Assembly (NCBI GenBank): GCA_965153455.1
Contig: OZ234493.1
Location: forward strand, 18,652,213 to 18,716,212
DNA length: 64,000 nt
Origin: Sphagnum compactum
Taxonomy: Eukaryota
Direction: 5' to 3'
The translations under genes were made by a program, and so were the position numbers. Every line of letters starts with the position of its first letter. The first letter of the stretch is position 1. Positions 9,692 to 48,100 of the stretch are shown here, piece after piece. Under the pieces are notes generated by a model. That model did no database searches. It was not told where the DNA came from and saw only the letters and a program-made list of their open reading frames with translations.

Positions 9692-12600
9692 ATGTTTTTA
9701 ACAAGGTATTCATTTTCAAGCTTCTTGATGTTCTCCTCTTTTTCTTTTTTCCTTCTCTCTTGTCCCTTTTTCTTGTCACTGCGTTGGTTCTGGACTCATG
9801 GATGTGTAGGGAGTTTTACTAGACCTCTGGAGCAGGAGATGTGGTTCATGGGTGGAAACATGGGATGATTGTGTGTGTGTGTGTGTGTGTGTGGGTGTGT
9901 GTGCAGGAGTGAGTATGACAGAGGTGTCAATACATTCTCTCCAGAGGGTCGTCTCTTTCAAGTGGAGTACGCCATTGAAGCCATCAAGGTTAGTGCAAAT
10001 TCTTCACCTTCATTTAGAAAGATAATTGGTTGAATCTCCGCAGTTTTTCAATTTAAGATTGCATGCACCTCGTCACACTTTTTAACCTTGTCAGTATATA
10101 GAAAAGGGTTATAGTATTAGTGTACTAATAATATACAGAGGGTGTTGAATAGGCTTTTATGTAGGTGTGCAAGAAAATTTTTTATAGCCAATGAAATTGC
10201 TGGACTTGGTGATCCTGAAGTTTTATTTATTTATAGTTATCTTGTGTGAACTAACAATTAAATATGTAATAGGGTTGGGTAGGTTTGTGAAAATATTAGA
10301 GACCAATTGAAATGGTAGAAAGGGACCATTCTTTTCAATGTTCAGCAGAATATGGTTGTGTGTATGTGTCAAGATCTTTTTTTTTCCAGACCAATGGGAT
10401 TGCCGGATTTGATGGTCTTAATTTTTTTTCTTAGTTATCTTGATTGAAGTAACAGTTCAATGTGTAATAGCTGTTTACAGACAGGGTTCTCTCACATTAC
10501 TTGTGCACTTTTTTTTCTTTCTAATCTCAAAGTTTTGTAGCTGGCCTGCATTTTCATTTCTAACTGCCTCTTTTTTGGTTGTATGTTATTGTGGATGATT
10601 TACAGCTAGGGTCAACGGCAGTAGGGTTGAAGACCAAGCAGGGTGTGGTTCTTGCAGTTGAGAAGCGAATAACTTCGCCTTTATTGGTAGGTTGGTTTCC
10701 ACTCTGAGGTGCTTTCGCAAATTCAGAAATGACACCTTTTCCTTGTTCTTGTTTCTAACTCATGGTTTCAATGTGTAATTCTTCTTTTGGGCTTTCACAG
10801 GAACCCAGCAGCGTGGAGAAAATTATGGAGATAGATGAGCACATTGGATGTGCCATGAGTGGTCTAACTGCAGATGCACGGACCCTTGTGGAACATGGTC
10901 GTGTTGAGACTCAGGTTGTCATCTTCCTGGTCCATTCTTATTTACCCACACTTAAGTGTGAAAGTCATGATGTATTTCCACTTACAAGAGTTTTGAGATT
11001 TGATCCAATTTGGGTCATTGAGTCCAAAAGTGATCTAAAATGGTTAAGAGATATGTCATGTGCCATGGTCAGTGTGCAGCACTCTGCAATTTTTGCTTTA
11101 TGCATCTTGAATCTTCTCCAGCCATAAACCCTAATATGGTTCAGGAATTCAATCTGGAGTTTCTAGATGTAAGATAGCAGAACCATTGCTGTCTAAATTG
11201 AAGACATTAATATGCTGCTGCCAAACATTATTATGCTTGTACATTGTATGTTTCTTCTGACTCTTTTCTTGGTTGCACCATAGCTGTCATGGGTTCTGTC
11301 TATGTCTGGCCCTTCTGTCATCACAAGGGAAATGGGGTTTAGGTCACACTAAAGCAAGGTATCCATCTCATGAACTAGACTTAGGCTCTTTTTCTTTCTC
11401 TGGACTGTTGCAGAATCACAGATTCTCTTACAATGAGCCTATGAGTGTGGAGTCAACAACACAAGCTCTGTGTGATTTGGCTCTTCGCTTCGGAGAGGGT
11501 GACGAGGAATCTATGGTTTGGGCTCTTCCACTACTCTGTTTACCTGTTTTATTGCCATGTGGATGGAGAGACTAAAAGTTGTAGCTGTAGGCTCAATTTT
11601 ATGCTTGATGCTTTGTTTGATTTCAGGATTTTAGACCCCTCAAGGCCCATTATTGCCATTGTTTGGGTCGGTCCTTTAAGGATTATGAGCTTGAGAGTCT
11701 AAATTGAAGGCACATAATATCCCTCTTTTGTTGGTCTGGGTGAGAACCATTGTTGGGCTCATGTAGCATTTGGTTTGACTCATGCTCTTCTTTGCACAGT
11801 CGCGGCCCTTTGGAGTGTCCCTTTTGATTGCTGGCTATGATGATAATGGACCATGCTTGTAAGCTTCCTAACTTTCCTATTGCTGCTCATAACATGGTCG
11901 TTGGGGCATCATGTATGTTATGTTGTACAAATATCTGTACATATTGTGGTGGTTTTATGTGTTACTGTTTAAAGCTTTTTTAGGAGAGGATTTTGTGTTG
12001 CATGTCAATGTTGGTGCATGTTGCCCATTTTGGTTTCCAAGGGTTTTTTTTGGGGTTTTATCCTTTCGGGACTGATGAATGAGGTAAAGATCATGTTGCA
12101 TGTGAGTAGGTATCACACAGATCCATCAGGGACATTTTGGCAGTGCAATGCAAAGGCTATTGGTTCTGGCTCTGAAGGTGCTGATACTGCTCTCCAGGAA
12201 CATTATGAGCCGGTACACACTCCCTTCCAAACATACCCTTATTTTCCTGGAGTCATCAGTGAAATGTCTTTGAAGTTCTAAGTTAACCTCTGAGATGGAT
12301 TTTGCAGTGTCTCAATGAGTATTGTAGGTCTGACCCTTGGAGTATGTAGTAGTCCAGCCATAGAAGAGAGAGAGCTAAATGTTTTGATGGAAAATTGTTT
12401 GTCACAATTTGTCCCAGTACTGTATGTTTGGCAGTACTAAATTTGCCACTTTCTGGATGAATAAATTCCAGAAAGCTTCTGATTATGTGGATTTCCTGGT
12501 GATGTAGAACATGACACTGGAGGAGGCAGAAACACTTGCTCTCTCTACCTTGAAGCAAGTTATGGAGGAGAAGGTAGTAGAAACCACTTTCAGCTAATTG

Positions 12601-16345: not shown

Positions 16346-18115
16346 TCACTCAAAAGCCCACTGGTTTTCCCTTCGGACTTCCTCTTCTTCTTCTGGTGTG
16401 AAGTCGTTCTTGATGTTGAATGTCTTGCGAATCTCCTCTGGAGTCTTGCCCTTAATCATATCAGCTACTGTTTGACAGGTAAGATCCAGCAAGTTCTTTA
16501 TATTCAGATAATTGGCTGCCTGCAAATACAGCACAACAATTGACTTCAGGATGATATTAAACAGCAACTTACTGGTGTCACAGCAGTAATGCCAGAAAAT
16601 CTTATGACAGTATCCAAGGCTTTTGACCTGGACTGTACAAACTAATGCAGAAAGAGTGCTGATACTGTACAACCTAGTTGATATGTCTATGCTATTCTGT
16701 TTCTTCTAAAACAATTATCTTGTATGCTCAGATTCCTTCCTCTTCTACATTACCTCCCACCCTAAAATAGGATATCTGTTTGTAAATGAGGCCTATGTTA
16801 CACACACATGTTTGAGTAAGCAGCAGGAAGATTTATCAACATGCATGCAGGAATCACAGATATTGACAACTTGTTGTTCACTGACAAATAGCTTATTGAT
16901 GCAATAAAAATTGCTCGAATGTAAGTTTTCCACAGCCACTCTGCAACTTTTCCATCCATCATGAGCAATATCCCATATGAGGGAGATGAAGTACTATACT
17001 AAAGGGTACTCTTCCCTATGATTTAAGACTCTGCACTTCCTTCAAAACTTCTTGAAAGAAACAGAGCAGAGGTTGAAGCACATTGCATTGTCAGGAACAC
17101 TTGCATATTGGTGATCCCACAAAGACATGAGAGTTTCCTACAGTTGGGGATGGCAGGGCATCTTTGAGAAATGTAAAGGCATACATGACATCTTTGACAT
17201 TGGTCAAAAAACTAAAATCCTGGGGACCATCTATGAAAGCACGCGACTCTAAGGTAGTATCATGACTTGTTGAGATAAACTTGTATTCTTACCAAGAGGA
17301 GTTCAAACCTCTGTGGTAATGATAGCCAAACATGGGCAGAGGGGTTCAAATCCAAGTTACATAGGTCAAGTTTGCAAGCAGAGAACATCCAAGGCTCTAT
17401 ACAAGTCTCAGGCTGGCACAGGGCCAGTTAGAGGGTTTCTTAGTCCAGACCTTCCTTAGAGTCTCTTAGTCCAGACCCGAGACTCATTCCACCGGTGTTG
17501 AGTATTGAGAAAAACCTGGTGTAGAAGCACAAGGAAATTTGGCGCCAAATGGTTCCTTTCTTATTCTGACCTAAGAGTCTTCACACTTTTAGTCAGTAAA
17601 GACTTAATGAAATCACTGCCTGACATCATGCGGTGTACATGCAGTTCAAGCAGCGGTAGGTTTACAAGACACAAGAGCGATGAGATAACGTGTTCCCCCC
17701 TGTCTACGGCGTTAGATGTCTACAGGGTACAGTACTTAACATTGTCAACACGTTTTGCTGCAACATCTGCAGCACTCTTGGTCATAACGGGGGAAAAAGT
17801 TGGTGGTAAGCTCACCAAGATAAGATCGAAAAGAGTCGCTTGATCCACCTTCACAAAGTCCTGATCCCAGGCCTTGATTTCATCTTCGGGCGTAGCCGGC
17901 TTATCATCAGTCGACTTTTGATTATCAACATGATACTTACAATACTCTATGACCTTGGCCAGAATCTTGCTGGAAACGTTAGGCAACGGGATGGGATGAT
18001 CCATGCCGGTGTCCTCAATCATGTTCTTTACAGCCTGTGACTCAAAAGCAACGGCTTCTTCCACCTCGAACATCTCATCATCGGAGCTCTTCAGCTTCAC
18101 TCGCTTCTCCGCCAT
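16346..18115 (-). CDS. SKP1: SKP1 (ASK1-like) SCF ubiquitin-ligase adaptor, 157 aa; exons 18115-17816 and 16519-16346
   Basis: [62 protein letters not shown]...[75 protein letters not shown]. The GT-AG intron is phase 0. A probable 5'-UTR intron lies at about 18125-18214. Confidence 0.98.
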
Positions 18116-18399
18116 GTTGCCTGCCTGCACACAATTTTTCTCCCAAAACAACGAAGGAAGGGGGAAAAAAAAAAAAAAACGAAGAAAACACACAAACCGT
18201 GACAAGTCTTTTACCTGCACACTCACAGAACCTAAACACTCAAAAAGTAGATCAATCGACGCAGAATCAGGAGAGCTTGCGCTCAGATAACAAACACCGA
18301 ATCGCCGTGCCCACTCCTCCTTGCCAGTTGCGCCGCCGTAGAAACCAAAACACCGCAACAGGAACACCAAAACCTCACAAAACGCTTCTTCGAAAAACG

Positions 18400-18780
18400 A
18401 GCGAATGAATCTGCCGCAGGGATGCAGAGCGCACGGATCTGAAACCAAAACGGACGCGGCCCAGCCGTCCACGCATCCCAATCTGATCACCAGCCGTCGA
18501 TCATCGATCGCAAACGTCAGGTGATGGAAAAAGAGGCTTTTCTGTACTATGGAATGGTCAAGCTTCTGCCCATTACGCTGGGTAAGGCGCCAGCGAGCCC
18601 CTTATAATGTGCAAGCGCTTGACCATTCCGTAGTACAGAAAAGCCTCTTATCCATCACCTGACATCTGCAATGGACGATGGACGGCTGGAGTCAGATCCC
18701 GGATGCATGGACGGCTGGGCCACGTCTGTTTTGGTTTCAGAGTCCCCTGCTCTCTGCATGCCTGCTAGCACAATTCACTC
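18400..18780. repeat. Long imperfect inverted repeat (arms about 170 bp, loop about 18575-18603) at the SKP1 5' end/promoter
   Basis: Left arm ...TCTGAAACCAAAACGGACGCGGCCCAGCCGTCCACGCATCC...TCAGGTGATGGAAAAAGAGGCTTTTCTGTACTATGGAATGGTCAAGC pairs with right arm GCTTGACCATTCCGTAGTACAGAAAAGCCTCTTATCCATCACCTGA...GGATGCATGGACGGCTGGGCCACGTCTGTTTTGGTTTCAGA. Confidence 0.93.
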
Positions 18781-26621: not shown

Positions 26622-27230
26622 TAATAAACACAATCAAATCGTATTTATTGAGTGCTCCCTGTTTTTGATCGGTTAGATAGTTTATTGGTCAAAGTGGGTT
26701 GCTATTGGGGAGTCTTCCACCTACTTGCAGTCCCGATTTCAGTTTTATGGGTGGGGTTGGGGAAAAAGTTAGTACCTAAATTATGGATGTGAGAAATATT
26801 CAGGGTTTGTTTTGCAGGGTCACATACTGAGCGTTGGTGAAGATGCTCTCAAAGACAAGATACAAATTTCTCCAAAACTTGTAGGAAGTGGTGACTCTTG
26901 GAGAAAATGTGGAGACAAAAAAAGAGAGCCCCTTTTCTTTTGGGGGACCACTGAAACGGTTCAAATGGCAGCGTCAAATCGTTTGAAAACCGTTTCTCCA
27001 TCGACCTTGATACGTTTCCGCCCTTGCCAGAATAGGAAAAAAAAGGCCGCTCGAGAACAAACAAACAAACATGAGCATTTTGGATGCAAAAAATGTTTGA
27101 GGATTTGAAACAGCAGCAAGCGATTTAGATCTTGATCTTGTTGTTGTGTAATTTCCATGTGGATCTTGGAGATAGATAGCTCTTCTCATCAAGAGTGTTA
27201 AATGAATAGAATAGGAGGAGAAGACCGAGT

Positions 27231-27259
27231 AGGAGGAGGAGGAGGAGGAGGAGGAGGAG
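27231..27259. repeat. (GGA)n microsatellite in the probable 5' leader of the PKA-R gene
   Basis: aggaggaggaggaggaggaggaggaggag, seen directly. Confidence 0.9.
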
Positions 27260-27403
27260 TACGAGGACGAGGACGACAAGAAGGAGAGGAGTGTTGTGGC
27301 TGTTTTAGCATACAATTATTATCAGCATTCACAACTTGTTGCTGAAAAGAAAGTAGGAGGCAATATAGGTTGCAGTACTTCCTCCGTGTTAGGTTGCGAG
27401 AAG

Positions 27404-30400
27404 ATGGCAGCTTCTAGTAGCGCCAGAGGCCGAAAAGCTACTGCTAACCTCGCAACAAAAGTATACCCTTCTTCGTCGTCGTCCTCCCCATCCTCTCATC
27501 TTCTCCCACTAAATTCTCAAACAAACTGCTGCTCAAAGCACATTACAATGTGCATTCCAGAGATCATCAGAATGTGCAGGAAATGACCTACTTTCTCTTC
27601 TACAACAATCTATCTCCCTCACAACTTACCACCGGATACCCAAACCCTTGTTCTCTCTTGGTGTCTTATAAAGACAGTCTTCAAGCAGGCCATCATGCTC
27701 TTTTTGCATCGCCATTCCCATCAGTGGCATTTGGATTTGACTTCACCAATCTTTTGATTGTTGAACCATGATGAGAATGGAGAGTTATAGGAACATACAC
27801 AAACTTGCCTGAGCACAATCTCCAACAAAAGCAACAACAAAAAGTCTATGGAATTGCAGAGAAATCTTGACAATGACAGTCCAACTATGAATGGAATGCA
27901 AGGAAATTATGTAGGGGTGAAGCATAATTGTGTCAGGAATGTTTGTCAGGCAAATGCACACATCCATTCTTCTGCACATCTGCTGCATCTGTATTAAAGT
28001 CCAGAGTCCAATCCTCTGCAGTCACGTCATGGCATGGCATGGCTCAGAGGAGATTCTCTGGTTGCTGGTTTTCTTGCAAACGAGAAACGAAGCCATAAAA
28101 CCAGAAACAAGGTTTTTCTTTGGCATGTTTCTGGTGGATTTGCAGTCCTTTTGGAGTCCTCTTGTACCTCTCTTCTTCCCCTTTGTGGCTGGGTCCTAGA
28201 GCTTTAATGGCTAAGGCTCTTGGTCATGTTGCAAAGTGCTGGGTTCAAACCACTGCTAGCTAGGTCATGCAACCTACGAGATCCTGTACAGGGTATGTGG
28301 ATTTCTGTTGCATGATGATCAACGTGTGATTTGATCAGGCCACATTGATCGTAATGACCTGATGATCAGCTTGGACTCATTTATTTCCATCTGTCAGTTT
28401 TGCTTTGTTGTCCGATCCATTTTACCTTGTGGAGTTGTGATGCATGCGAGATCTTGCAAAATTGGTGTGCACCATGCATTTACAAGCATGGTATAGTATA
28501 ATTACAGTCAAGATCTCACCAAATTCAGTATTTTAAGATATGGGGACAGACCAGGGATGGAGTACCCAGCAGCAAGCATTCCAGAGATGTGGTTTGATCA
28601 AGGTTCGCATTGGATTTAGACACGGATACTATGATTGTGATCCCCTTCTACTTCGAACCTTTGTCAAGTGTTGTTGGGTAGGGTTGTTACACAACCTTGA
28701 AGTAGACAAAGGTTAGACAAAGGTTTCTCCCCGGTCCAAAGAGAATAAACTACCCTGGAGATTTTGCAAACATTTGCATAATATCTCAGTTGCAAAATGT
28801 TGAAGATGACCATTGCTTCTTTGTGTGAATCCTGACTGCTTTGAAATCAGGGGTAAAATAAATACCATGGCCAGTTGCAGTGACACCTGCAAATGTATTA
28901 CTGCTTGCAAGGGCTTCATTTTATATTCAAATCCTGTTTGTTGCTTGGGTTTGTAGATCTGATTCAATTCAGTTCTGTTCAGTTCAACCCCAAGCAATTG
29001 TGCAATTCCTCATATCTCCATAAATAAGTAGCCTCTGTATTCATTTGGCTCAGAAGACTAACTGATTTTGTTGAATATGAGATGTGCAGGAAAGGCGGAA
29101 GCACACCCTCTCCTTTCGCAGGACCGGCGTGAGTGCTGAATGTGCTGTCACTGATGAGAAGTATATCCCTAAGGTGCATGTTAGATTAGAAGCTGGTTTG
29201 AGATGCCCATATCATATCTGTTTTATTAGGGACATGAAGAAAAAGCAGAAAAAGATCAGAACATGGTGAGCAGAGAGCTTGACAATATTGAGTGTGTTGG
29301 TTGGGTTGTGGCATTTGCTAACTGACTAGGATCCTGGAAGAGTGTTTGCTGATCTCTTTATTTGCTGTTTCTAATGTTGTCTTGCTGTGAGGACACCACA
29401 GTAGGAAAGGATATCTGAGAGCTAGATGTTCAATAAAATGAATGTTCTGGAGTGCAGGTAATTCCAAAGACAAGTGAGGCCAAAAACCGGATACAAAAAG
29501 CCTTGGAAAAGAGCTACCTCTTCACATCTCTTGACAAGGACCAGATTCGTACGGTACTCACCACCACAATCCCAACCAATGTTTCCCATGTGGGAGAAAG
29601 TTATTGAACTGGTAACATATCCTGATTGCACTTGAATTTTTATACAATCTTCATTGACTTAGTTGCAATGAAGATTAGCCATCATCTTTCTATTTCATTA
29701 CAAGCAAGGAAAGGGTTAGGAATCAATTGATGAGTCACTTTTTTGTCTCTCATGGATGAAGAAAACACAGTGATGAACTGATAGAAAGCATAGATTGGTA
29801 GCAGGTAATTGATGCAGTGGAGGAACAGAGACATAAAGCTGGACAGGTCATAATTCAACAAGGTGACTCTGGCCTTATGTTCTACCTCCTCGAGGTGATT
29901 CTCCATCTCTCACATGTGTCTTCAAATGTTTTTCCTCCACATTCATCCAAGACACAGATTCAATGAGTACTTTAGCAAATCGAAGTATTCAATTGTGTTT
30001 CGGGTCTCACAATTTTCATTAGACTATCATTGACATTTTGTTACATAGCTTGTTTTTGAGAGTTTCAAAGTGCTTTCAAGGAGTTTTTGAAGTACAACAT
30101 AATTAATCAAGTGTGCATGGTATTTGGCAAGCAGGCAGGTTCATGCGAGGTTTGGCTACAGAAGCGACCAGGCACAAATCCAGAGATGGTGAAGACTTAT
30201 TCTGCAGGCGAAAGCTTTGGTGAGCTTGCCCTTCTCTATGATGCTCCTCGTGCTGCCACTATCAAGGTCCGTCTCTCTCTTTTTCTCTTCCCCTTCACTC
30301 TGTAATTGGCTACCCACACAACACATCTGGTTCTGAAGGGATCACCATCATGGTGCATTGCATCAAAACATTAATCTTTAAAATCTAGAGCTCCCAGAAA

Positions 30401-32365
30401 ACAACAAAGTGCATGACATGGTAGGATAAAAGCGCAGCCCAACAAGGCATTGTCTAGTGATTCCTTCCCACAAATTGTGCGGGTTGCTGCAGGCAAGCAC
30501 TGATTGCATAGTATGGGCAATGGATCGTGCCACTTTTCGATCAATTTTGATGACATCAACCAACGAAAAGAGGCAGCTGTATGAGGAATTCCTCGAGAAT
30601 GTGCCTCTTCTTCAGGTCCTCAGAAAGCCAATTTACAGTTCAAATAAAAATTACTTTCTTAAGGATCCTTGTATTTGTTTCCCTTTTGAACTTTGGGTTA
30701 TCATAATCATCATACCCACTTGCCTCATTGTGTTATCACACACCCATTGTGAATATTTGAGTTTCATGTTTTTTTTCGTTATAAGATCCCCTCACACTCC
30801 AAGTTGCCATGGTGAATTTTTGGCTTCATTAAATGGCACCTAAGCTTCTCTTCTTGTTAGTTGATCAAATGGTGGTTGGCAGTCACTTGACAAGTATGAG
30901 AGATCTGCGATTGCGGATGTGCTGGAAGCTGAGTACTTTGATGCTGGGAAAGTAATAATAATTGAGGGCACACCAGGAGAAAAGTTCTACTTTCTTGAAG
31001 AGGTTAGCAGTAATACTCACCACCCTCAAGCACTTGAGAAATCTCCTAATGTATTTGGAGTGCACCTGACATCCGGTGAGTATCTCTCTCTTAGAAAAGG
31101 GGAGGAGGGATCTACCCCTACTCCTTAAGAGTGGTAAGGATCTTATAGGTGGGTTCTTACACCTACACCTATCACTCTTTTACGTGTAGGTGTAAGAACC
31201 TACCTATAAGATCCTTACCACTCTTAACCTTTTTAAAAACCATATTTTTGCACTTGGAATTTTTGTTTTGGTTATATTTTGTGTTTTGGTGAGAATGATT
31301 AGTAAAGAAAATTACTACTAAATTTCTATGAGTGAAAAAAAAGGATGGCACCACTTTGAGTATCACCAATTAAGATTATGAATCAAATAAATCTTGGACC
31401 AACCATCGAATGTCAAGGTCTAAAAAACAATTTTATAATAATATGAGCATTCCAATTAACAAAGATGACCCAAAGATGGGACTATTACAAAATCATGTGT
31501 ATAGGGAGAAGCTGAGGCAAGATCAAAAGGTCAAATTGTCATGAGATACAATAAGGGAGACTACTTTGGTGAATTGGCATTGATTAATGATGCTCCACGA
31601 GCTGCCACCGTGGCAACGGTCACAAAATGCAAAGTTGTTTCCATCAATCGCGAAAGTTTCAAGGTTAGCTTTCAAAGCTTAAACACAAGTTGCGAATGGC
31701 AAGGAATCTTTTTTTAATGTTCATACTTTGAAGTTTCTACTATCAACATACGGAGCTATTCTTGATTGTTATGTTTTAGATCCTAACATGGTTAAGAATA
31801 TATGTTAAGATGAATTCAATTTATAACATGCTTCCATTTCTTTTTCACAAGTCCACATCCCTTTTGACCTAACTTTCCACATATTCACCTCTTTGCATTC
31901 TAATATGTGGTTAAAAAAGACTTTACATAAGAAAGGAAAGAGATCATTTGATGTTAAGATGACTAAAAGTATTTTATACGAGGTTGGTTCATTGAGCCAC
32001 CCTAGGTCCTACCTCCTTGGAAGGGTAGTGGTTCTTCACATAACCATTGTCCACAATGCTCCAAAATGGAGAGCTCATTATTTAGGTCTAAAATGTTTAT
32101 TGGGTGCAAGTAGGCCTGTGTAATGGAAATGGGGAAACCTTGTCCCACTTTCACACATACACCTTGTCAAAAAATGCCATTAAGGCCTCTTGACTTGGAG
32201 AGGCAATGGCTAGTCCAAGCTACTTTCACCATGCTAAATATTTTTCAAAGGTTTTTAATTATCATCTAAATATAAATTAGTGGGTGGATGGCACAGAGGT
32301 TGTTGGGAAAGCTTGAAGACATCTTGCATCGAAGGAAAGCTGAATACACCCACACTAGCAAATGA
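27404..32365 (+). CDS. PKAR: cAMP-dependent protein kinase regulatory subunit (PKA-R)-like, about 309 aa; exons 27404-27460 (tentative), 29090-29173, 29458-29553, 29805-29894, 30135-30266, 30493-30615, 30883-31002, 31505-31663, 32297-32365
   Basis: Spliced: ..[223 protein letters not shown]. It has an RRxG inhibitor site and tandem CNB-A/CNB-B domains. The first exon is less certain (weak AA|GTATAC donor). Confidence 0.93.
31125..31227. repeat. Near-perfect 44 bp hairpin inside a PKA-R intron
   Basis: TTAAGAGTGGTAAGGATCTTATAGGTGGGTTCTTACACCTACAC, a 15 nt loop, then GTGTAGGTGTAAGAACCTACCTATAAGATCCTTACCACTCTTAA (one G:T mismatch). Confidence 0.92.
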
Positions 32366-33843
32366 TTACACACTCAATAATCACTCCACTTATTTGCAAA
32401 ATTGCATTTCCAGCTTTATTTTTTAATTATTTTTTAGTGTGTGAACAATTTGTATAATGAGGTGGTTGTTATACCAGTTGGACAATAAGTCGACCCTCCC
32501 ACAATTTTAATTATGAATTTTATTATTTCTATGCATTTCATACTACTTTAACCATTAAAATTCATCAACACATCTCATAGAGAAAAATACAAGGACATTG
32601 AAAGCAATGATCCAAACACAATTTTATTGAAATTCTTTTAAATATGTCCCAATAAGACCTAACAAGTACATTCAATTTTTGGATGTGTGTTTACCTAAGA
32701 CAAAAACTAATGTAATTGAATGTTAATTCAAATGCATTCAGCCATTCTCCAATTTGAAATTTAGTTAGTAATCAAAGCACCTGCAAGCAAGGTCTTGTCG
32801 ATATAACTTCTAATCTCTTTCATTTTTTAGGATAAGAAAAAACTTATTAACATGCATTGTGGCATTTCAACATCTATTATTATACAAAATGCAATACGTT
32901 ACTTGCACACCACACATTGATCAACAAATTGTATCGAACTAGTATTGGAAGAGTGTTATTTAAAACTAGTCATTTGATGTATAACATGTTGCCATCATAT
33001 GGCATGACATCATTGTATCAATTGATATAATGTGATTATTTTGCTCCAATTAAGTGTTCATGTTCGATGCTTGGTGAATTTTTCATTTTGTTCAATCACA
33101 TATACTACCCCTCACAATGTGAGTTTTGAATGCCATGTAATAAAGATTTGAAATAATGTTGAGGCTTAACGATTTGGTCATGGGTATGATATGTAGGTTG
33201 TGGGACATGGAGGTTGAAACATGATGGTTGGGCATAAGGTTGAATTGATATTCCATATTTGCAAAAAAAAGATTTATACATTTTATTTTTCAGGTTATGT
33301 TTTGTTTTTGGTGTGCAAGAAAAACATAAATCCTCCATTTAATTTTTTTATTTTTGTTGTGCATCAATGGATCTCATGCATTTTCACATATTAGAGGAAA
33401 GGAATAACTAAAATATGGTGTTAGGATGATCAATGGACTGATCGATAAACAATGCTTTTGATATGAGGATATGCATGTATGTTGTAGCAGAGTCTATTAG
33501 TTGGTAGTGGGGATGAGCTTCAAACTTCAGACTCAAGGGAAAGCTCTATGCCATGGTTTAATGTTAGGATCAATCGGAGATCCTTGAGAGCGAGGAACCA
33601 AGGTGTTTTCTTGACATTCAAACACTCTGTGCAATTGAGTAATTTCAACTAGATATTGATGTTCCCAAAGAAAATCCATGTGATTTCTTCATATTTCCAT
33701 CAAATGCCCAATGGTTATTTATTATGTTCCCAATTTGTTCCCCAAGTTCCCAATAGCAACACACTTTATCCCATTGTTTCCCCCAATGAATTAATACTAA
33801 TCACTCTCACGTTGACCCAACACATTGTGTTTTGTATCGTTTG

Positions 33844-37893: not shown

Positions 37894-40800
37894 ATGGGGC
37901 AGTCTGTGGGAGAACCTGCCAGGGTGCTCCTTCTTTTTTCAAGCTTGTTGTTTCTGGGAACAGTAGGCAGGGTCAACACAATTGGAGCAGGTAGAGCATC
38001 AGAGAATCACAGTCACAGAGTGCTTGAATTTCTGGATGTGGTCAAGGGACATGCAGAATTCAGGGTCGCGGATAAACCTGTGCAAGGCCATTTTCTAGGG
38101 GTTGCAGATCAACAACTCAGAAATGAGTATCCTTGGGTTTCAAGAAGGCTATTACAAAGTAATGAGGTACTGGAAACCGGTGAAGAACACAAAGAGGTAC
38201 CTTTTGAACATTTTCTGTCCACAATTGAATTGAGCTTCCAGATTCAATTACTTGATCATGATCCTCTTATTTATCCCAGAGATTGTTTAGCATCAGTTTC
38301 TATTTTGCACATGAAAGTTATTAGTTGCATAAAAAAAATTTGCATTAAAGAAATAAAATCAACGTCTTTGTGGTCAAGGTTTGGAATGCCCATATTGTCA
38401 CTACATGCCATCCTACCATCCAGATTGCCAATTACTTGGGAAAGGTGAACAGACTATATTCACTTTGTTTCATCTTGCCATTCACTTTTGTTACGTTACA
38501 TGTTCAAACATGGCAGTTATGGAGGCTCCATTTGGATTTGAACCTGGATCAAATTTTGGAGCACAGCTCTCACAATACACAGCAGTACCTGACTGACGAC
38601 AGTGAAGGAGCAGGGATTTTGGGAACCCTTTCTGAGGCAGGTCTCGTTTATGTGAAAGAAGTTCTGGTGAATCAAATACTAAAAGAGATTACACCACTCT
38701 CTTTACCTGATATACATTCACAAGCAAAGTCTCCAATTGGTCAAGTTGACACTACCATCACTCATATTGAGTTATCGGGTGCCAATGTTTCTTACTCTGA
38801 TGTTGATTTGGGAAAGACTGGAATTACAGTGTTTGCTGGGGATATCAAGGCAAGAATGCGTTTTCATTGGAAATATGAGTGTACTTCCAGCTATATGCCA
38901 TTTCCTGTAACTGATGGAGGATGGGCAGATGTTGAGGTCAGTTTTTGGTCCTTTCTATGTCCTTGACTCAGGTATATTATTGACTGCATTTGTTCCATGT
39001 CTGCTATCACATACAAGAAGACCCAGTTGGAGTTTCATTGAAATATTCTGGTAGATGGTGGTCCATGCACTTGCACTTGTGCTGGGTAGGGCAACAAAGA
39101 AAGTGCTTGTTTTTTTCCCCAAGAAAGTTTTGCAGTGTGTTTACTGTCACTGAGCAACCTTTCTACTATGAACACAGCTTTTAATTTGTATATAGTAGGG
39201 TAAGCTGTATCAAAGTAGCTAATCATTTTTATGGTTTCTCAGCCTTCTAAGTTATGGTGGACTGGGCTTACTAAACTAAATAAGCATATTCAGTACTTTG
39301 CAGGGTTCTCATTTTCTTGCACTGGCATCCTTTGTTTCACAGTTCTCTTTAGCTTGCTTGGTTGTTGTAATGTGCTCGTTTCCGCAACCAAGCCTCAGTC
39401 CCATGAGATGTGAATGAACAGTTGTGAGGATTGTTATTCTGGTCCATAACAAGATTGGAATAGTGGTTTGGTATGAAAGAGAAGGCCTGCTAACTGCTAT
39501 GCATGACAGTGATGTCAAGTGCCAGAAGAAACTAAATGGAAAAAATTACATCGCCTGTGCCTCTAACCAGAAAGCATATGAGGGGTTTTTTTCACAAATT
39601 TGCACCAGAGAATATTTGTGACACCCTTAACTTGGTCATGTTGTACATGCATGGAATTCAATGAGTTGGTTTCATTATTGGGAGAAGAACTATCACAGTA
39701 TAGGATTGTGCCCAACATCCATAGCTTCCTCATGTAATCGCATGGATAGTGGCATGGTTTCGACATCAGCAAAGAAGATCACAAGGGCATTGAGGTTTGT
39801 TGTGAATTCTCAGGTGACAGGCATGCAGGCTGGTGTGACTTTCACATTGCAAGCACATAATGGAACTTTGCGGTTAACTGTTGTGGAATGCGGGACTTAT
39901 ATTGAGGATCTGGACATTGAGTTGCATGGTGGTGCTTCTTGGCTTTACCAGTGGTAACTAATCACTTTCTCAGTCAGTTTGGAGCACAATGATAGCCTAT
40001 GTTGGCTTATGTCCTGGTAATTTACATGGTACTAGTTGTAAAGACGTAGCTTGTTGCAGCTTCAATAATACTTGACTTTCTTTGTGAGCTATATCATTTG
40101 AGTGTTAGCCAACAGAATGACTGAGTCTGCCTGCTGCTTTTGGAGATGTAACAGAATTCAGGATGCAGACTTGAGTGAGTGTTTACCCAAATATTTTGGC
40201 AGATTTATACTTTTCTACTCCCACATTCTGCATTGGTTGGTGCTAGCCAGTATTGTGACTGAGTCCTCCTCCCATTGCTTCTGGACCTGTGACAGAAACT
40301 CAGTATGCAGGCTAGTGGTTTCACTGGCCTTTTCCCACTGTAGGGAGCTGATGCAGTCAGTGGGGAAGTTGTGATAGATGAATCGCTATCCTATACCTAT
40401 ATGTTACTGCTGATGTCCCCTGAACAAGTGATAGGCTGTCACTGCTGATTATACTGCTTGTTTTTTTTGTTTTTTTGTTCTGTTCTTTCCTTCTATGTAC
40501 TTTTTCCTGGTTCTTCTCTGGGAGTTTTCCTTTGATGTGAAGGAAAGGTTTTTCACCTGGTCCTGGTTTCCTTAATTGTGATTATGGAGATTTCTCAATA
40601 CTCATGAGAGTTATTGATTATCTACACCCATCTTTGGGAGCTCATGAAGTCAGCATAAAGTCATGGTAGCTAGTCACTGCTATTTATAATAAAGGCAATG
40701 GCCTGATGCTTTGTGAGTGACACTCTTAAGGTTATGACCACATCTATTTTTCTTGTGTCAGTTTTGGTTTTGCTGGATGCAACATAACCGTTAGATTTGA

Positions 40801-43431
40801 AGTATAATTGTGGAGTCTTCTCTGCAATCTCATAGATATGGTACTAGTTCTTAAAAATCTTCCCAGGTTCTGAACAACAGAGTTGGTCCCATTTGTGTTG
40901 TTCACTGATCATGTTGCACTGAATTGATACCATTGTTTCAAAAATGCCATGTGTTACAAATGATTGATCTCAAGTGTATACCTATCAGAGAAGATTAGAA
41001 GTGGTCATTTGATGCAATCTTAAATGGAGTAGTTGAAATGGTTGAGGCAGAAAAGAGTACAGAGATATTTTTCATTTTGTTTCTCACCTTTGGCCTGTGG
41101 CAACCTGAACCAGGTTTGTATATGCATTTGATGATGAAATTCGGGCAGCAGTTGAGGGAGCCATCTCATCAGCAATTATCTCAGGGGCTCGAAAGTTGGA
41201 CACTTTTCTTTTGGGACTTCCACGAAGTCTTCCGATTGATGATATATCTGCCATCGATGTCACAGTTGTGGAAGACCCCTTTGTTAGTCCCACCTTTTTG
41301 AGTGTAGGTGTAAAGGGTGAATTTATCTCTCTGAAGAAGCCCACTGTCCCCCTGCAGCCTGACCATTCCTTGCCCCCAGGGATATTCTGTAGTGAATCCG
41401 CAAAGATGATCACTATTGCTGTATGTGATTATGTCATCAATTCAGCTGCAAAAGTCTATTTTGAGGTACATTGCTCTCTTTTGGAGCTGATAATGCTCTT
41501 GCCTTTGGTCTTCTGCTTTCTACATTTCCATGAGCCCTTAGGTTTGAGCTGGAGCTTCTCTGATTTTGCCCATATACCTTCATGTACCTTGCTTTTTTGT
41601 TCTGTTGTCACTTTTTTTCAATCTTTTATCTTTGTTAATCTCCTCATTTCCCTTAGCTCTTGGGGTTGCCCATAAAGCTTCCACTATTTTCCTTGGTCAC
41701 ACAATGTCCAAGGAATTTAATGTATTATTCAAACTAACATAGTTGAAACCTGCCTTGGAGCTCCTGTGAATACAGCAAATTTCCATTTTCCCCACCCTGT
41801 TGTTTTCTCTGGTTCTGAGTCTTGTCAGTGTCTGCTTTTTCTAGGCAGGAGTCTTGGATTGGTTGGTTGATGAGTTGCCCCAAGAGTCAATGTTAAATAC
41901 AGCCTTTTGGAAGTGGCTTATACCACAGCTCTACAAAAAGTATCCAAATGATGACATGGCACTTGACTTCTCTGTCTCTTCTGCACCGCAAGTTGAACTT
42001 TCAAAGGATGGAGCAAAGGCATTCGCAGGTGCTGACATGACAATTATTGTCAAGACCAACAATGGTTCAGTCCCTGTAGCCTGCTTATCCATGGTGGGTG
42101 TTTGTTTCATTGTATTGGTTTGATAATTTTTCCTGAAGTATGACAACACTATTCACCTTGTGATGGTTGTGAGAGGACCCTCACTGCACTTTTAAAGTGG
42201 GACATTAACCAGTATTGTGATTGATGTACACCATAATGGGTTTTGTGTAGCCAGCAGAAGGACTACTACTGTGAATAATGTGTAACTCTTCCCAAATTTG
42301 TGCCTACTTACCACTAGCTGTGAGGAAACCTGCTGCATGCAATTTGTCACCATTTGAACCTTTGTAGTTCCAGAGCTTTGAGAGATTCCTCAGTGGCTTG
42401 TAATACCAAGGAAAAGCATACATCATTAGGAAAACTTTATCTGCCAGTAATGTCTACTACATAGGCTGCAAAGTATGATGCTCAGTAAGCAGCATTCTTA
42501 TGGGTGGTAATATAGGATACAGTTCTCGTCAAACAGGGTGCCAATTGAGTATGGAATGTGGAACAACATTGTACATCACGTGGCAATGTTTGTAGTTAAT
42601 GGCTATATCTGTGTCTTGTAGGTGTTAAAGTGACAGGCATTTTGTTGCAGACTTTTTCAATGGATGCTATAGCTGGACTTGAGGGGAACAACATCACAGC
42701 ACAAGTCACATTAAATGATCTCACCCTCCAGCTAAAATGGAGTGAGATTGGCAAATTCCCTGTTAAACTTATGCAGGTAGTAGCCTTTCTGATTGCTCCT
42801 CTTTTATCTTTGTTGTGCATTTTGTGGTGTGGCGCTCATGTCATATAAGCTGCTAGCCTCTTCATACATAGGTCACAGTTTTACTCAACATGACTCTTAC
42901 ATGTTAACAGTTGTTTAACTCCTGTGTGAGGTCAGGCTTTCTATTTCTGTGAAAAGTGTGTTGAATTTGACCTAACACATGAAAGCTTTCATCTGCTTGT
43001 AGATGGAACATAAACACTCGAAATTCAAGTGATATAGGGCTTAGAAGACAAACTGTAGTTGTGGTACATGTGAGATTGCTGGGTGAATTCACGTGTTGCT
43101 TGTAGGTTGTGTAAGTCCTAAGTCCTACCGATATTGTGTGAATGGCAATATGGTGGTCTCATGATACAAACTAGCCAGAATCTCAAAAGAAAAAAGAAAC
43201 CTGAAGTAACAGTTGGCCACTGTGATATTATCTTCTGTGCAGTCAACAGTGCGCACATTGGTTTCAAAAGTGATTATACCAATATTAAATCACAGTCTGA
43301 AGAAGGGGTTTCCACTGCCAGTGTTTCCAGCAATTGACCTCCAGAACGCAGATGTCAGATATGACAATGGCTACATCCTTATTTGCAGTGATGTGCACTA
43401 TAAAGGTGGATACATCAAACCATCTGTGTGA
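37894..43431 (+). CDS. BPI/LBP-family (LBR-like) secreted lipid/LPS-binding protein; exons about 37894-38196, 38517-38936, 39814-39953, 41114-41465, 41845-42093, 42651-42776, 43243-43431
   Basis: Hydrophobic signal-like N-terminus, then a BPI1 domain (GILGTLSEAGLVYVKEVLVNQILKEITPLSLPDI..LRLTVVECGTYIEDLDIELHGGASWLYQWFVYAFDDEIRAAVEGAI) and a BPI2 domain (YVINSAAKVYFEAG..LNTAFWKWLIPQLYKKYPNDDM..PILNHSLKKGFPLP). GT-AG junctions are in frame. Confidence 0.92.
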
Positions 43432-45119
43432 CCTCCTGATGAGCTATCTTTGACAGTACTCTTGGAAAATGATTTTCTAAGTGGAAGGTAAATGTCACGA
43501 GAAAGGCAAATACGAGCAAAAACATTTATCTTATGCTGAAAGAAGAAATGAAAGAATGTTCGCAGAACTAAGGGATGAAACATGGATTCAAGAAGATCAG
43601 GAAAGACAATGCAGCTTCCGAAAAGGTGGTGAAAATATGTCAAAAATTCTCCTATCAAAGCCTGCAAGGTAAGTGCATTGAAATGAATCTTCATCTACTC
43701 TTAGGATTTTAAATGTTCCTTCTCAAGCTGGTTTCCTTAAGTACTTTGTCCCTGACCAATTTTAGGGCATAGTAAATGGGGCATCCTTGTTTTTAGTGGG
43801 TACAACAATTTAAGAAATATTAAATGGGTAAATGGATCCAGACTAAAGAGAACTAGTGCAGATAGTGTAGAATGATTGGCATATGAAGGGGAGATGTGTA
43901 CTGAATGGTTAGAACTGAAAGTTATGATGCTTGTAAGTACAATTAAGTGGTTTGTACTGGTGAAGGTGATTTGTACTGGTGATTTGTCCTGTGGACAAGT
44001 CACTCTTCTCTGAAGGTTTACAGAATATATCTTGTCAGATCTGTTGTTTGTTGATCTCCTTAGGTTACTGCTTACAGTCTGGTGATATGCCATGCTGAGC
44101 AATTTGTTTAGCGGGGAGAAATTCTGTCTGGTGGCAGTGTAAATACCACGGTTTACATCTGAGAGGATGTAGTTTCATCAATGGTGTCTCACATCATAGT
44201 TTAGGACAGGCTTACCCCACTCTTCTTCTTCAAACGCTTTCTCAAACAGTAATTCACACAGTGAGGACTTGTGGCAATTTGTGGCAAATCATGTTCCTTT
44301 GTGGGGGTGACACAATTGATTTGCCTTACAGGTCAGTTGACATCATGCTTAGAATTTTGTCTTCAGATTTGGTGGCAAACTGTACTACCTTCAAGCAAAC
44401 AATGCTACAGTCACATGAAACAGAGATTTCACACATTTTGATCTTTTGTGTCAGTAAATTTTGACTTAGCGATGTTGATCATGTATGATATATCATTGAT
44501 GTAGCAAAACTTCAATTTTCCAACTGAGGTTGCTTTTATTCTACTGCAATTGTTTTCTATTCTTGGGGGTTGTTGCCTAATGGAACCAGACCAGCTCCTG
44601 ATTCTCACCCCTAGTCCATGAGATCAGAATCACTATGATTCTGTTTTGCTTTTCTGGGTGCAATTGGACTTGAGGAAAGATAATGCTTCAGAACAGGAGT
44701 GATCAGCTGACAAAACCATTGCAGCAATAATATAGTGAATGAAAATGAATAACATTACAGTTGTGATCTTTCTTAACTGAACAAGAACACCAGATGGCAC
44801 ATGATTGACATCATGGATCCCTTTTAAGGTTGGACCAGCCTCCAAGAAGTGAATGCTCACTCAAATTCATGGCCTTATGTATCATCACATAGCAATTGCC
44901 TCATGCAACTCATACATGTCCGAAATCTCCCTGACCGAAATCTTCCTGACTGCATACATGTCCCCTCAAGCTTTCCGGTGGGCTGCACACCACTAACAGC
45001 CCAACCATACCACTTGTGCCTTTCATCATCTTGAAGTCAAAGATTCTCAGCAGTTCAGTGCAAGATCTGTTGTCATCAAAGATGGGAGGTAGCCCCAAAA
45101 CCCAAGCACACCGCACTGC

Positions 45120-48100
45120 CCAGCCATCTTGTCTGTCTGCAACATAGCAATTCTGCTGAGAAAAGCACAAGGCATGAATTTTCAAACTTAAATGTGGTAC
45201 ATCACAATCCTACACTGCTCATACTTGCAAAAGTCCTGTTCTATGAGAGTCCTACAGTGGCACTCACCTCTATGGAGTTCTTGTTACCACTTGTACTGCA
45301 ATTATAATTGAAGAGTCATTCCGTAGCTGCTTCTTGTACACATGCTGATCTTGGCTGGATTTCGCTCAAAAAGTACTGTGCCATATCCTTGTCCTCTCCC
45401 TTGTCTGTCATGGCTGCAGCTGCTTGGAGATCAGCAAGCTGTAATACCTCACAATATGTACAGCCCAAGGACAGAATGCTATCACAAATCCTATCTTTCA
45501 TTGCTACCACATCCATGTACCTGGATATGCAAAATGGATTGGAAATCAAGTATCTTCTTGGTAATGCCTGGCAAACATTGCAACAACCTCAAACACAATC
45601 AGGAGAAATCCCCTGTAACCAAAAGGTATCATAACAAAGATGACGCTTAAATTTGTGCTGAGACCCTTCCAACATCTGATTTTGAATATAGGGTAAGCAT
45701 TGACCCATGGACCAAGGTCATGTGGCACTCAGCACGAAATTTTTTGTTGATACCTGTGGTTCCATCAGCCATGTACATAAGTTTCTCTGGATTGTTGGAG
45801 AGAGTGGCAGCTGCAAAAATCTCTTTGGAGGCTGATTTCAAGCTTGGGGGAAAACCCTACAAACTGAAAAAACCTTCAATGCCTTGGATGTCCCAAGCAC
45901 ATCACATGGGTCACCCTGAAACACAAGGAACCAAATTGCAAGAGACACTAAGAGTATTGGTGCTCTAGATAGGTGGAAGAGAAACAACCACACTTTGACC
46001 GTTTTCTGTCAAAAGTAAACAGCACTTGAGATGAACATGTACACCAGAAACTACATTCTGAGACCACTCAGGGACTTGGTGGATGACTTAGAGAAGATGA
46101 TACTTCTGGTGAGGCTTCATCAAATGCATGCTGAGTACAAGTGTAGTACAATGAACAGAAGCTCTCTGCTGGAATGCACCATTAGCATGACATAACTTCC
46201 TTTTGCAGGAGGGACAGGATTCTGCAACAGTGTAAAGCCTTCCCATCACCAGTATCCTTAAAACCTGAGTTTCCCATTCAAGTGCACAAGAAAGTAAAAC
46301 AGATCCAGAAAAAGAGAGCAGTCTGATGTAGAGGTTGACCTGTTACAAGTTTTTTGCATGTTAGAAAGAAAGAAACTTGAAGTTAGTCAATCTTGAAATG
46401 TACCCCAGTTTCAAAGACCTGCAGAGATGCAGCATGCATGATGGAAAACTTCATTAGAGTCTTGAACTGCCAGTAAGACGTGGGAAACATGTGAGAATGT
46501 CCATAGTCCTATAGAGTGTAAGAGCTCGGCATAGACGTTGTGCATTGAAGACTTGCATAGAAGATGCAGCAGTAGCATGATACTGCAGAATCTCATCACC
46601 TAGCTACAGGAATGATATCAGCTACCTAGAAATGTGGTTGTTTAAGAGGTGAAAATGTTGCTTTGAGAGACACCTTGAGCTGCAATCTTCTGTTAATGAA
46701 ACCAGCCTGGGAGCCCAAGTATACCACAGTGCCCAGTCATCTGGTCTGTCTGGAACATAGCATACACTTTGTAATCAGGAAAACATGAAGAACTAGCAAT
46801 TCTGCTGAGAAAGCACAAGACATGAATTTTCAAGCTCCAATGCAGTCTGTCACAATCCTACACTACTCATCCTTCCATAGCACTCACCTGAATGGAGTTA
46901 TTGTTACCACTTGTACTGCAATTATAGCTCAAGTGAGAGCGATTCCATAGCTGTTTATCACACACTTGCTCAGCTTGGCTGAATTTTGCTCAAAAGGTAC
47001 TGTGCAGTATCCTTGTCTTCTACCATGTCTGCCATGGCTGCAACTGCTATAGAATCCCCGACAGTATCCACAGCCCAAGGCTAGGGTCCCATGCAAATCC
47101 TGTGTCTTTTGTTGCTATCATGTCCATGTACACCTGGTAAGGCAAAATGGTTTGGAATTCCAGTATCTTTCTGATGATGCTTGGAAAAACTGTGACAACC
47201 TCAAATGAAATCTGAGAAATACCCTGTAACGAAGCATTTCTGTTGATGCCTATGGTTCCATGAGCCATGTACATAGCTTTCTGTTGATTGTTGGAGAGAG
47301 TGGGAGCTGCAACATCATCTCTTTTGAGGCTGATTTCAAGTTTGGAGAAAAACCTTCCAAATTGACCAAAAACCTCAATGCCTTCAACATCCCAAGCACA
47401 TCACCTGGGGTCACTGTGAAACACAAGGAACTAAATTGCAAGAGATACTAATAGTAATGGTGCTCTATATAGGTGGAAGAGACACAACCACAAGTTATAC
47501 TTTGACTGTTTCCTGTCAAAGTAAATGGCACTTGAGGTGAACATGTACACACTAAACTGCATACAGAGACTGCTCAGGGACTTGGCATGAAACACAGTTA
47601 CACTGAGACTTCATTGAATGCACACTGAATATAGGTGTAAAGTAATCCTCACAAGCTCTCTGCTGGAATGCTCCATTAGCATTACATTACTTCAGTTTGC
47701 AGTAGGGATGGGGTTCTGCAACAGTGTCAACCCTTTCCCTCCTGAAAGAGTTATCCATAAAGCCTGAGTTTCCCATTCAAAACCAGGCAATGGTAAACAA
47801 GCAAAACAGATCTGGATAAAGGGAGCAGGTTGCATAAAAATGAAGTGTTCCCCAGTTACAAATACCTCCAGAAATGCAGTACCATGCACAACGAAAAACT
47901 TAATTAGGGTCTTGAAATGCCAGTTAAGAAATGGGAGACGTGAGAAAACGTCCATAGTCCTATAAAGCTTGAGTAAGAGCTTGGCATAGACATTGTGCTT
48001 AGAACACTTCAAACTACTCGCACTCTGGCCTTGTACCACAATTTCAATTGAATGAAAGAAGAGGACCTTTGGGGAAGAGGACCTTTGGGGGAAAGAGGAA

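Follow-up and report, generated by a model that had tools for sequence, protein, structure and literature searches.

A protein kinase A regulatory subunit gene with two alternative first exons in Sphagnum compactum

Plant PKA regulatory subunits and the position of the Sphagnum gene

The closest described system is the regulatory subunit of protein kinase A (PKA-R) of the liverwort Marchantia polymorpha, for which Yamamoto et al. (2024, PMC11032487) report that double knockout of both PKA-R genes impairs sperm motility. According to the same report, both genes are expressed in antheridia, a homologue of the PKA catalytic subunit (MpPKAC) is present, and a clade of "plant PKA-Rs" is set out in its Fig. 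5A. The two liverwort proteins, MpPKAR1 and MpPKAR2, carry two cyclic-nucleotide-binding (CNB) domains with intact phosphate-binding cassettes, the same inhibitor region as the Sphagnum protein, and no dimerisation/docking (D/D) domain matched by Pfam.

The Sphagnum compactum PKA-R gene lies at 27404-32365 on the forward strand of a 64,000-nucleotide window, the whole stretch of DNA analysed here. The best overall explanation, to which we give a probability of about 0.85, is a PKA-R that would act through pseudosubstrate inhibition, be released by cAMP and serve a sperm-motility module as in Marchantia. The gene belongs to a known family, of which it is an unremarkable representative, and it raises no new question: in 2024 the family was described together with its plant distribution and its sperm role (PMC11032487), and the protein itself is already public. 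An earlier interpretation of the letters alone (the sequence-only reading) had called the gene not new to plants but probably uncharacterised in its lineage. The first point is borne out by the streptophyte orthologues listed and by the published Marchantia PKA-R. The second holds for experimental work, with no paper on PKA in Sphagnum found in the literature searched, but not for sequence records, where the exact protein and orthologues from six Sphagnum species are deposited.

Bryophytes, Selaginella, ferns, Ginkgo, Cryptomeria and Chara are all represented among the 120 relatives listed, and flowering plants are represented by none of these 120. The streptophyte members are 185-384 aa long and carry PF00027 only. 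Peat mosses resemble other plants whose sperm swim in retaining the PKA pathway's cAMP receptor, which flowering plants lack. Orthologues are annotated in the six Sphagnum species, Physcomitrium and Ceratodon, and near-identical environmental fragments have been named automatically as "cAMP-dependent protein kinase regulator".

The sequence-only reading had proposed a phylogeny that could reveal a fungal origin. In our maximum likelihood tree of 42 rows (SH-aLRT support from a quick method with no bootstrap and no animal sequences), the window gene falls inside the streptophyte R subunits and outside fungi and alveolates, nesting first in mosses, then with liverworts, then in streptophytes. 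Support is 100 for its pairing with S. magellanicum, 99 for the moss clade that includes it, 89 for mosses plus liverworts, which are sister clades, and 97 for streptophytes. The PKA-R gene has been inherited vertically in Sphagnum and is, by its sequence, the PKA-R orthologue of a non-flowering land plant.

Other moss genes, namely Physcomitrium patens P0124 ("cAMP-dependent protein kinase regulatory subunit isoform X2"), Ceratodon P0122/P0123 and the Sphagnum chromosome-13 paralogue P0121/P0240, are 67-74% identical to the window gene, colinear with it and share its motifs. The window gene represents the chromosome-8 type in Sphagnum; in the tree, copies of the chromosome-13 type fall with Bryopsida genes at weak support (85), and their cassette B reads PRSAT or LRSAT. 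The Marchantia protein P0005, one of MpPKAR1/MpPKAR2, is 63% identical over 291 residues and has about 40 residues before the inhibitor region, versus 19-21 in Sphagnum.

It is extremely improbable that the gene is a contaminant, a horizontal acquisition or a decaying pseudogene. The only hints are faint: a slightly longer terminal branch of the window copy, 0.044 versus 0.005, and RNA fragments that retain introns. Against them stand eight introns, an intact frame, orthologues on contigs of 23-37 Mb in six Sphagnum species, a related moss's DNA-like run that spans the whole 5.8 kb, and a gene tree that follows the species tree pattern with no fungal or protist placement. The 12 differences from S. 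magellanicum all fall at sites that vary among 18 other streptophyte sequences, and several of them are exchanges of D with E or V with I. The neighbours are ordinary eukaryotic genes, among them SKP1 and PPR, both identified among the window's open reading frames (ORFs). The PPR family is expanded in plants. The sequence-only reading had likewise argued against contamination from plant neighbours. Its SKP1 and PPR are present, and its "PAE" corresponds well to a gene for a proteasome alpha subunit near 9869-12278, but no ClpP was seen among window ORFs of at least 50 aa to match its ClpP5.

Relaxed selection on the window copy was considered and rejected, since all 12 differences fall at such variable sites.

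Gene structure and transcripts

The PKA-R gene is real and intact (Table 1). As the sequence-only reading had anticipated, canonical GT-AG introns separate nine exons, with AG/GT borders throughout and every exon in phase 0. The splice assembly yields a 309-aa product (930 nt) that sequence comparison finds to be exactly P0222, the NCBI "unnamed protein product [Sphagnum compactum]".

Table 1. Exons of the PKA-R gene and the repeat in intron 7 (window coordinates)
Feature	Position	Strand	Content	Junction or identity evidence
Exon 1a, first coding	27404-27460	+	19 aa, MAASSS start; ATG, then GT donor	
Exon 1b, alternative first coding	28540-28602	+	21 aa, MGTDQGW start; inside intron 1a	
Exon 2	29090-29173	+	Inhibitor (pseudosubstrate) site RRTGV, 29117-29131; conserved TLSF motif before the site	
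Exon 3	29458-29553	+	Linker and N-terminal helices of CNB-A	Joints 29173/29458 and 29553/29805 in RNA contigs
Exon 4	29805-29894	+	Start of CNB-A beta barrel	Joint 29894/30135 in RNA contigs, depth 24.8
Exon 5	30135-30266	+	Phosphate-binding cassette A, 30216-30260	Joint 30266/30493 in RNA contigs
Exon 6	30493-30615	+	B/C helix linking both CNB domains	Exon 6/7 junction crossed by P0237, P0238
Exon 7	30883-31002	+	Start of CNB-B	Exon 7/8 junction crossed by P0235, P0237, P0238
Exon 8	31505-31663	+	Phosphate-binding cassette B, 31565-31609	100% identical to S. magellanicum protein
Exon 9	32297-32365	+	C-terminal helix with conserved Tyr; stop TGA 32363-32365	Exon 8/9 junction crossed by P0235, P0238
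MITE-like palindrome, intron 7	31125-31227		Two 47-nt arms, 96% complementary, 9 nt apart	

The exact junctions of introns 2, 3, 4 and 5 are found in RNA-library contigs, with a depth of 25.8 at the exon 2/3 joint, and those of introns 2-8 are crossed by six environmental transcript-derived proteins of 84-97% identity. The RNA runs X1 and X2, a bulk field moss metatranscriptome that looks like one data set filed twice, give no cover of exon 1a or of exons 7-9. Several transcript fragments, among both RNA contigs and environmental proteins, run into retained introns 3, 5, 6 or 8. Because X1/X2 lack exons 7-9 and fragments end in retained introns, much of the observed PKA-R RNA may be unproductive. 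Two S. fallax isoforms, P0225 and P0227, differ at the C-terminus, which is shorter in them.

Sphagnum PKA-R has two alternative first exons, which give it two short, poorly conserved N-termini. Exon 1a opens P0222 and orthologues from five further Sphagnum species, and it is weakly conserved: 15 of its 19 residues match S. magellanicum, versus 282 of 290 over exons 2-9. The second start, absent from the sequence-only reading, is supported by RNA-library contigs that splice 28602 to 29090, removing 487 nt bounded by GT..AG, at a depth of 7 and with 27 nt on the shorter side. Its ATG is in frame, with a stop codon two codons 5' of it. Annotation of two other species includes the exon-1b isoform as well: the window's exon-1b product is identical at 303/311 positions to P0230 of S. 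fallax (311 aa) and at 299/311 to P0224 of S. magellanicum. Such a clean, RNA-supported model with two starts helps annotation, as Sphagnum records list the gene as "unnamed" or "hypothetical", and it is useful for carrying the Marchantia sperm-motility work into mosses.

The sequence-only reading had also placed MITEs around the gene, and one MITE-like palindrome is indeed present in intron 7. In X18, a DNA-like run from a related moss, word depth is 170 in the bin holding this palindrome, versus about 20-50 in other bins, and X18 has 289 other letters at 31227-31231.

Domains, motifs and solved relatives

Pfam matches cNMP_binding (PF00027) in two stretches of P0222 (E 6.7e-42; 141.8 bits versus a cut-off of 27.5) and finds no domain besides these. 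This is the result that the sequence-only reading expected of a profile search, and the RRTGV site and both CNB domains, with complete cassettes, lie where it had put them. Cassettes A and B both read FGELAL...PRAAT, and their Glu and Arg residues (E139, R148; E257, R266) are invariant in an alignment of 32 R subunits (A1). The protein thereby has the residues that cAMP binding would be expected to need. The inhibitor stretch RRTGVSAE aligns with RRGGVSAE of the human RI-beta chain 4din_B, and R30, V33, S34, A35 and E36 show no or almost no variation among the 32 aligned R subunits. The Gly at P0 marks a pseudosubstrate of the type I kind.

Solved structures point in the same direction. Of the 36 PDB sequence matches listed, the top 15 are PKA-R chains, and RI chains score 214-218 bits, PKG 183 and RII 181. 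Bovine RI-alpha matches at E 1.6e-62, and mammalian RI matches as a group span 1.6e-62 to 1.8e-63. An AF2 model of the Sphagnum protein (mean pLDDT 80.2) predicts a long helix at residues 165-188, within exon 6. When this model is compared with the PDB by Foldseek, the first 26 matches are PKA-R chains, rank 32 is RI-alpha from a bovine sperm axoneme map, and TM-scores to holoenzyme-state RI chains are 0.6-0.69. Mammalian RI-alpha and RI-beta (1rgs, 4din, 2qcs) share with the Sphagnum protein a non-phosphorylatable P0 in the pseudosubstrate, tandem CNBs and the conserved cassette Glu and Arg. Aromatic residues of the Sphagnum protein occupy what we take to be the cAMP-capping positions of RI. 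In the alignment to 4din_B, exon 7 has Tyr (KYER) where RI-beta has the Trp of KWER.

Two observations could favor reading the protein as a sensor of cGMP, or as a regulatory portion belonging to a PKG-, Epac- or CNGC-like protein: PKG chains reach 183 bits, and fusions of CNB and kinase domains occur among the distant matches (P0033, P0045, P0066). RI chains nevertheless score higher, and both cassettes end in PRAAT, in which we take the Ala after Arg to be a cAMP-type residue where PKG has Thr. Linkage to a kinase or channel domain, which the sequence-only reading named as one finding that would overturn its assignment, is absent from the gene, from 97 flanking ORFs (no Pfam matches) and from 150 window ORFs. 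The reading frame is closed by a stop before the exon-1b ATG and by the TGA of exon 9, and the listed streptophyte relatives share the same compact, PF00027-only form. We therefore regard a cGMP- or channel-type identity as very unlikely and retain the assignment to PKA-R.

The sequence-only reading described the gene as a canonical PKA-R of the animal and fungal kind. This description stands for the CNB domains, cassettes and inhibitor site; it does not stand for the N-terminus, where the RIIa D/D domain is absent and exon 1b provides a second, RNA-supported beginning. Pfam finds no PF02197 (RIIa) in P0222 or P0004. A hidden upstream D/D exon was considered and rejected: a tblastn search of the whole window with 21 RIIa-bearing N-termini gave a best E of 0.55, while full-length controls did find the CNB exons, and the flanking ORFs are without a Pfam match. 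Mammalian RI and many fungal relatives among the matches listed differ from the Sphagnum protein in carrying this domain. The usual dimer is accordingly not expected, and the protein is probably not tethered by AKAPs in the customary manner; both its quaternary structure and its targeting may therefore depart from those of textbook PKA.

The apicomplexan PKA-Rs (Plasmodium 5kbf, Toxoplasma 5j3u) are the top-scoring solved relatives at 222.7 bits and also lack Pfam RIIa; the tree places them in a clade of their own. An MGN.C start, which we take to be an acylation signal, is present in four of five apicomplexan sequences compared. A myristoylation-type pattern of the PROSITE kind fits the N-termini of window exon 1b, Ceratodon P0122 and Physcomitrium P0124. 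However, the MG of exon 1b becomes MR in S. magellanicum, and the myristoylation idea for this exon was downgraded for that reason.

Proposed role in sperm and beyond

In the proposed mechanism, RRTGV, whose phospho-acceptor position holds Gly as it does in type I subunits, would fill the active site of the PKA catalytic subunit, and binding of cAMP to both tandem CNB domains would free the kinase. By analogy with Marchantia, the cAMP would come from a CAPE cyclase/phosphodiesterase, and the module would tune flagellar beating in motile sperm. We infer cAMP binding and PKA-C inhibition by the Sphagnum protein from its conserved residues, and its putative sperm-motility role from the liverwort precedent.

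The distribution of the family bears on this role. Among the relatives listed, streptophyte PKA-R otherwise tracks motile sperm, with one exception: Cryptomeria, a conifer whose sperm are non-motile, has a PKA-R (P0129) and, as reported in PMC8115329, retains CAPE. The module is thus not strictly bound to motile sperm. A genuine PKA-R that in Sphagnum works mainly outside sperm, or in sperm and elsewhere, possibly as a cAMP sensor in signalling of the vegetative gametophyte, would accommodate this conifer, together with the spliced transcripts in the bulk metatranscriptome (X1/X2) and the six environmental transcript-derived fragments. Field shoots may carry antheridia, however, so that bulk RNA is compatible with gamete-specific expression. 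The Marchantia orthologues are described in PMC11032487 as antheridium-enriched, with a knockout phenotype in sperm, and the family otherwise follows motile sperm across streptophytes. We consider a vegetative role unlikely, while giving it some weight, and favor the sperm-motility module.

Transcripts in bulk field moss and environmental assemblies are not in themselves proof of antheridium-specific expression, and a wider role is possible.

A more speculative idea joins several of these features. Plant PKA-R would have lost D/D-AKAP anchoring, with targeting and dosage in Sphagnum set at the RNA level and with a second, non-sperm use of cAMP-PKA; taken as a whole, we find this doubtful. The alternative first exons give differing N-termini, one of which starts with MG in the window and in S. 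fallax. Widespread retention of introns 3, 5, 6 and 8 could keep transcripts unproductive until spermatogenesis, and the transcripts in bulk field tissue would then be a hint of that second use in peat moss.

Gene model and transcript support

The gene model was built from the sequence at 27000-32800 by joining exons by coordinates. It comprises nine exons with GT-AG introns throughout and phase 0 at each exon start, and its 930-nt coding sequence yields a protein of 309 amino acids. The spliced product equals P0222, deposited as an 'unnamed protein product' of Sphagnum compactum on a 37-Mb contig, at every residue. The exon model assembled by hand in the sequence-only reading, an intact spliced gene of about 309 residues at 27404-32365, is thus the deposited one, and the inhibitor motif and both cassettes that it quoted were located (table). 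Just 5' of exon 1a, a GGA/GAG triplet run (27220-27287), whose open frames read poly-Glu/poly-Gly, was passed over as a repeat in read mapping.

Features of the window, with their position and basis
Feature	Coordinates	Strand	Basis or place
Maf1 tail	149-310		neighbour, window ORFs
LRR_9 protein	3064-5718		neighbour, window ORFs
Proteasome alpha subunit	9869-12278		neighbour, window ORFs
SKP1	16349-18601	-	neighbour, window ORFs
Exon 1a	27404-27460	+	exon assembly by coordinates
Exon 1b	28540-28602	+	in-frame ATG at 28540 and RNA joint from 28602
Exon 2	29090-29173	+	exon assembly by coordinates
RRTGV inhibitor motif	29117-29131	+	exon assembly
Exon 3	29458-29553	+	exon assembly by coordinates
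Exon 4	29805-29894	+	exon assembly by coordinates
Exon 5	30135-30266	+	exon assembly by coordinates
Cassette A (15 residues)	30216-30260	+	exon assembly
Exon 6	30493-30615	+	exon assembly by coordinates
Exon 7	30883-31002	+	exon assembly by coordinates
MITE-like palindrome, 103 bp	31125-31227		intron 7
Exon 8	31505-31663	+	exon assembly by coordinates
Cassette B (15 residues)	31565-31609	+	exon assembly
Exon 9	32297-32365	+	exon assembly by coordinates
LBP/BPI/CETP protein	38349-43428		neighbour, window ORFs
PPR protein	56657-58670		neighbour, window ORFs

Four sequencing runs were compared with the region. Joints in moss metatranscriptome contigs (29173|29458, 29553|29805, 29894|30135 and 30266|30493) reproduce introns 2-5 exactly, with GT..AG ends. 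The contigs come from runs X1 and X2, whose figures agree exactly and which are probably duplicate entries of a single data set. Depth was about 25 for spliced contigs, against 6-8 for unspliced ones (introns 3, 5 and into intron 6); exon 1a and exons 7-9 had zero cover in these contigs. Run X18 covers 30/30 bins at 90-99% likeness, as DNA from a related moss would. Support independent of the metatranscriptome contigs comes from six environmental proteins (P0226, P0231, P0134, P0237, P0235 and P0238; contigs of 0.9-2.8 kb), which share 84-97% identity with the model and together cross all junctions of introns 2-8, P0238 alone covering exons 4-9. Several of these fragments start or stop within intron sequence (introns 3, 5, 6 and 8).

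The RNA joint into exon 2 runs from 28602 to 29090, not from 27460, skipping 487 nt with GT..AG ends (depth 7, shorter side 27 nt). The resulting exon 1b, with a stop codon two codons 5' of its ATG, provides an alternative N-terminus of 21 residues and a protein of 311. Annotations of S. fallax (P0230; 303/311 positions match) and S. magellanicum (P0224; 299/311) include this isoform. Conservation is poor in both first exons: against S. magellanicum, exon 1a matches at 15/19 residues and exons 2-9 at 282/290.

Both the RNA contigs and the environmental proteins derived from transcripts frequently enter introns 3, 5, 6 and 8 (29554-29613, 30267-30492, 30616-30808, 31664-31717). One S. magellanicum isoform, P0223, begins in exon 3 in a different frame and reaches exon 4 from an apparent donor some 60 nt into intron 3. 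Transcripts of this gene seem often to retain introns or to be spliced alternatively. In the S. fallax isoforms P0225 and P0227, a short different C-terminus replaces the last 22 residues and drops the final helix; an alternative acceptor shortly 5' of exon 9 (about 32283-32296) is suspected.

Identity as a PKA regulatory subunit and the form of its N-terminus

Pfam returned the two expected cNMP_binding matches and no other domain. PKA regulatory subunits are the first 15 of 36 solved-structure sequence matches listed, led by Plasmodium PKA-R (222.7 bits), human RI-beta (217.6) and bovine RI-alpha (214.5), with type II subunits at 181 and PKG at about 183. Aligned with RI-beta, RRTGVSAE lies opposite RRGGVSAE, and the two cassettes also line up; in KYER, Tyr takes the place of the Trp in KWER, and the C-terminal Tyr is shared. 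We take these last two to be cAMP-capping positions in RI. With Gly at P0, RRTGV is presumably a type I pseudosubstrate, and the Ala that follows the cassette Arg in PRAAT is taken as the cAMP-type residue. Cassette Glu and Arg are invariant in both domains across 32 aligned R subunits. In the AlphaFold2 model (mean pLDDT 80.2) residues 1-38 are disordered. PKA-R chains fill the first 26 places among its Foldseek matches, with the best TM-scores (0.6-0.69) to RI chains in the holoenzyme state.

Directly 5' of the pseudosubstrate lies RKHTLSF (29099-29116). The TLSF ending is conserved across bryophyte R subunits (RRTLSF in other mosses, SKTLSF in liverworts) and fits a basic-x-x-Thr kinase site; it is a putative autophosphorylation site.

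The sequence-only reading called the protein a canonical animal/fungal PKA-R. This holds for the inhibitor site and the cyclic-nucleotide-binding (CNB) domains; it fails for the N-terminus, which has no RIIa dimerisation/docking domain (PF02197). Pfam found none in P0222 or P0004. The N-terminal 120 residues of 21 R subunits with PF02197 had no tblastn match in the window (best E 0.55), full-length controls recovering the CNB exons, and 97 flank ORFs (45-78 aa; 8 kb upstream, 6 kb downstream) gave 0 Pfam matches. The streptophyte relatives listed are all 185-384 aa with PF00027 only, and apicomplexan R subunits likewise lack RIIa.

Descent, orthology and predicted role

A quick maximum-likelihood tree (42 rows, six of unknown origin and none from animals; SH-aLRT support only) pairs the window protein with S. 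magellanicum (100). The pair sits among mosses (99), whose sister group is the liverworts (89). Mosses and liverworts together fall inside a streptophyte clade (97) with Selaginella, ferns, Ginkgo, Cryptomeria and Chara; green algae come next outward (97), and apicomplexans and fungi stand apart. Fungal contamination or transfer is ruled out by this placement. Flowering plants account for 0 of the 120 relatives of P0004 listed, where a PKA-R at 55-60% identity would have placed among the first 30. The orthologue in Cryptomeria japonica, a conifer with no motile sperm (P0129; 349 aa, 58% identical), groups with Ginkgo; it parallels the Cupressales exception described for the cAMP cyclase/phosphodiesterase CAPE, whose streptophyte distribution otherwise tracks motile sperm (PMC8115329).

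A second Sphagnum copy on chromosome 13 (P0121, P0240 and others) is 74% identical to the window gene. In S. magellanicum P0240 the cassette-A Arg is replaced by His, and cassette B of these paralogues (P0240, P0244 and P0245 among them) reads PRSAT, but LRSAT in S. troendelagicum and S. tenellum. The paralogue may bind cAMP differently.

The window gene is orthologous to one already known and represents no new kind. Its exact protein and isoforms in sister species are already deposited, and the source record of the Physcomitrium orthologue calls it 'cAMP-dependent protein kinase regulatory subunit'. A 2012 review (PMC3499706) still described plants as without typical PKA; that the family occurs in plants, is monophyletic there and acts in sperm has since been published (PMC11032487). 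A search of the literature for PKA in Sphagnum returned no paper, hence the lineage lacks functional studies.

PMC11032487 reports two PKA-R genes and one PKA-C in Marchantia, antheridium-enriched expression of both PKA-R genes and CAPE, and impaired sperm motility in the CAPE mutant and when the two PKA-R genes are knocked out together. The mechanism proposed for Sphagnum follows from orthology with Marchantia PKA-R. Beyond the domain content, we infer that RRTGV would hold PKA-C inactive, that cAMP made by CAPE would fill both CNB sites and release PKA-C, and that the freed kinase would tune flagellar beating. A strictly sperm-specific role, however, sits poorly with transcripts in bulk field RNA and with the retention of the module in Cupressales (PMC8115329; P0129).

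Neighbouring genes and the intron 7 palindrome

The neighbours are ordinary eukaryotic genes. Among those named by the sequence-only reading, SKP1 and PPR were recovered, its 'PAE' is probably the proteasome alpha subunit, and ClpP5 was not found among window ORFs of at least 50 aa. Several long ORFs at 44000-56500 lack a Pfam match, e.g. 49771-50649 (-, 293 aa) and 52675-53241 (-, 189 aa). Of the MITEs it placed around the gene, one MITE-like palindrome was confirmed. This element is multi-copy in the related moss genome (X18 word depth 170 in its bin). X18 also shows 289 other letters at 31227-31231; the site is therefore polymorphic between species.
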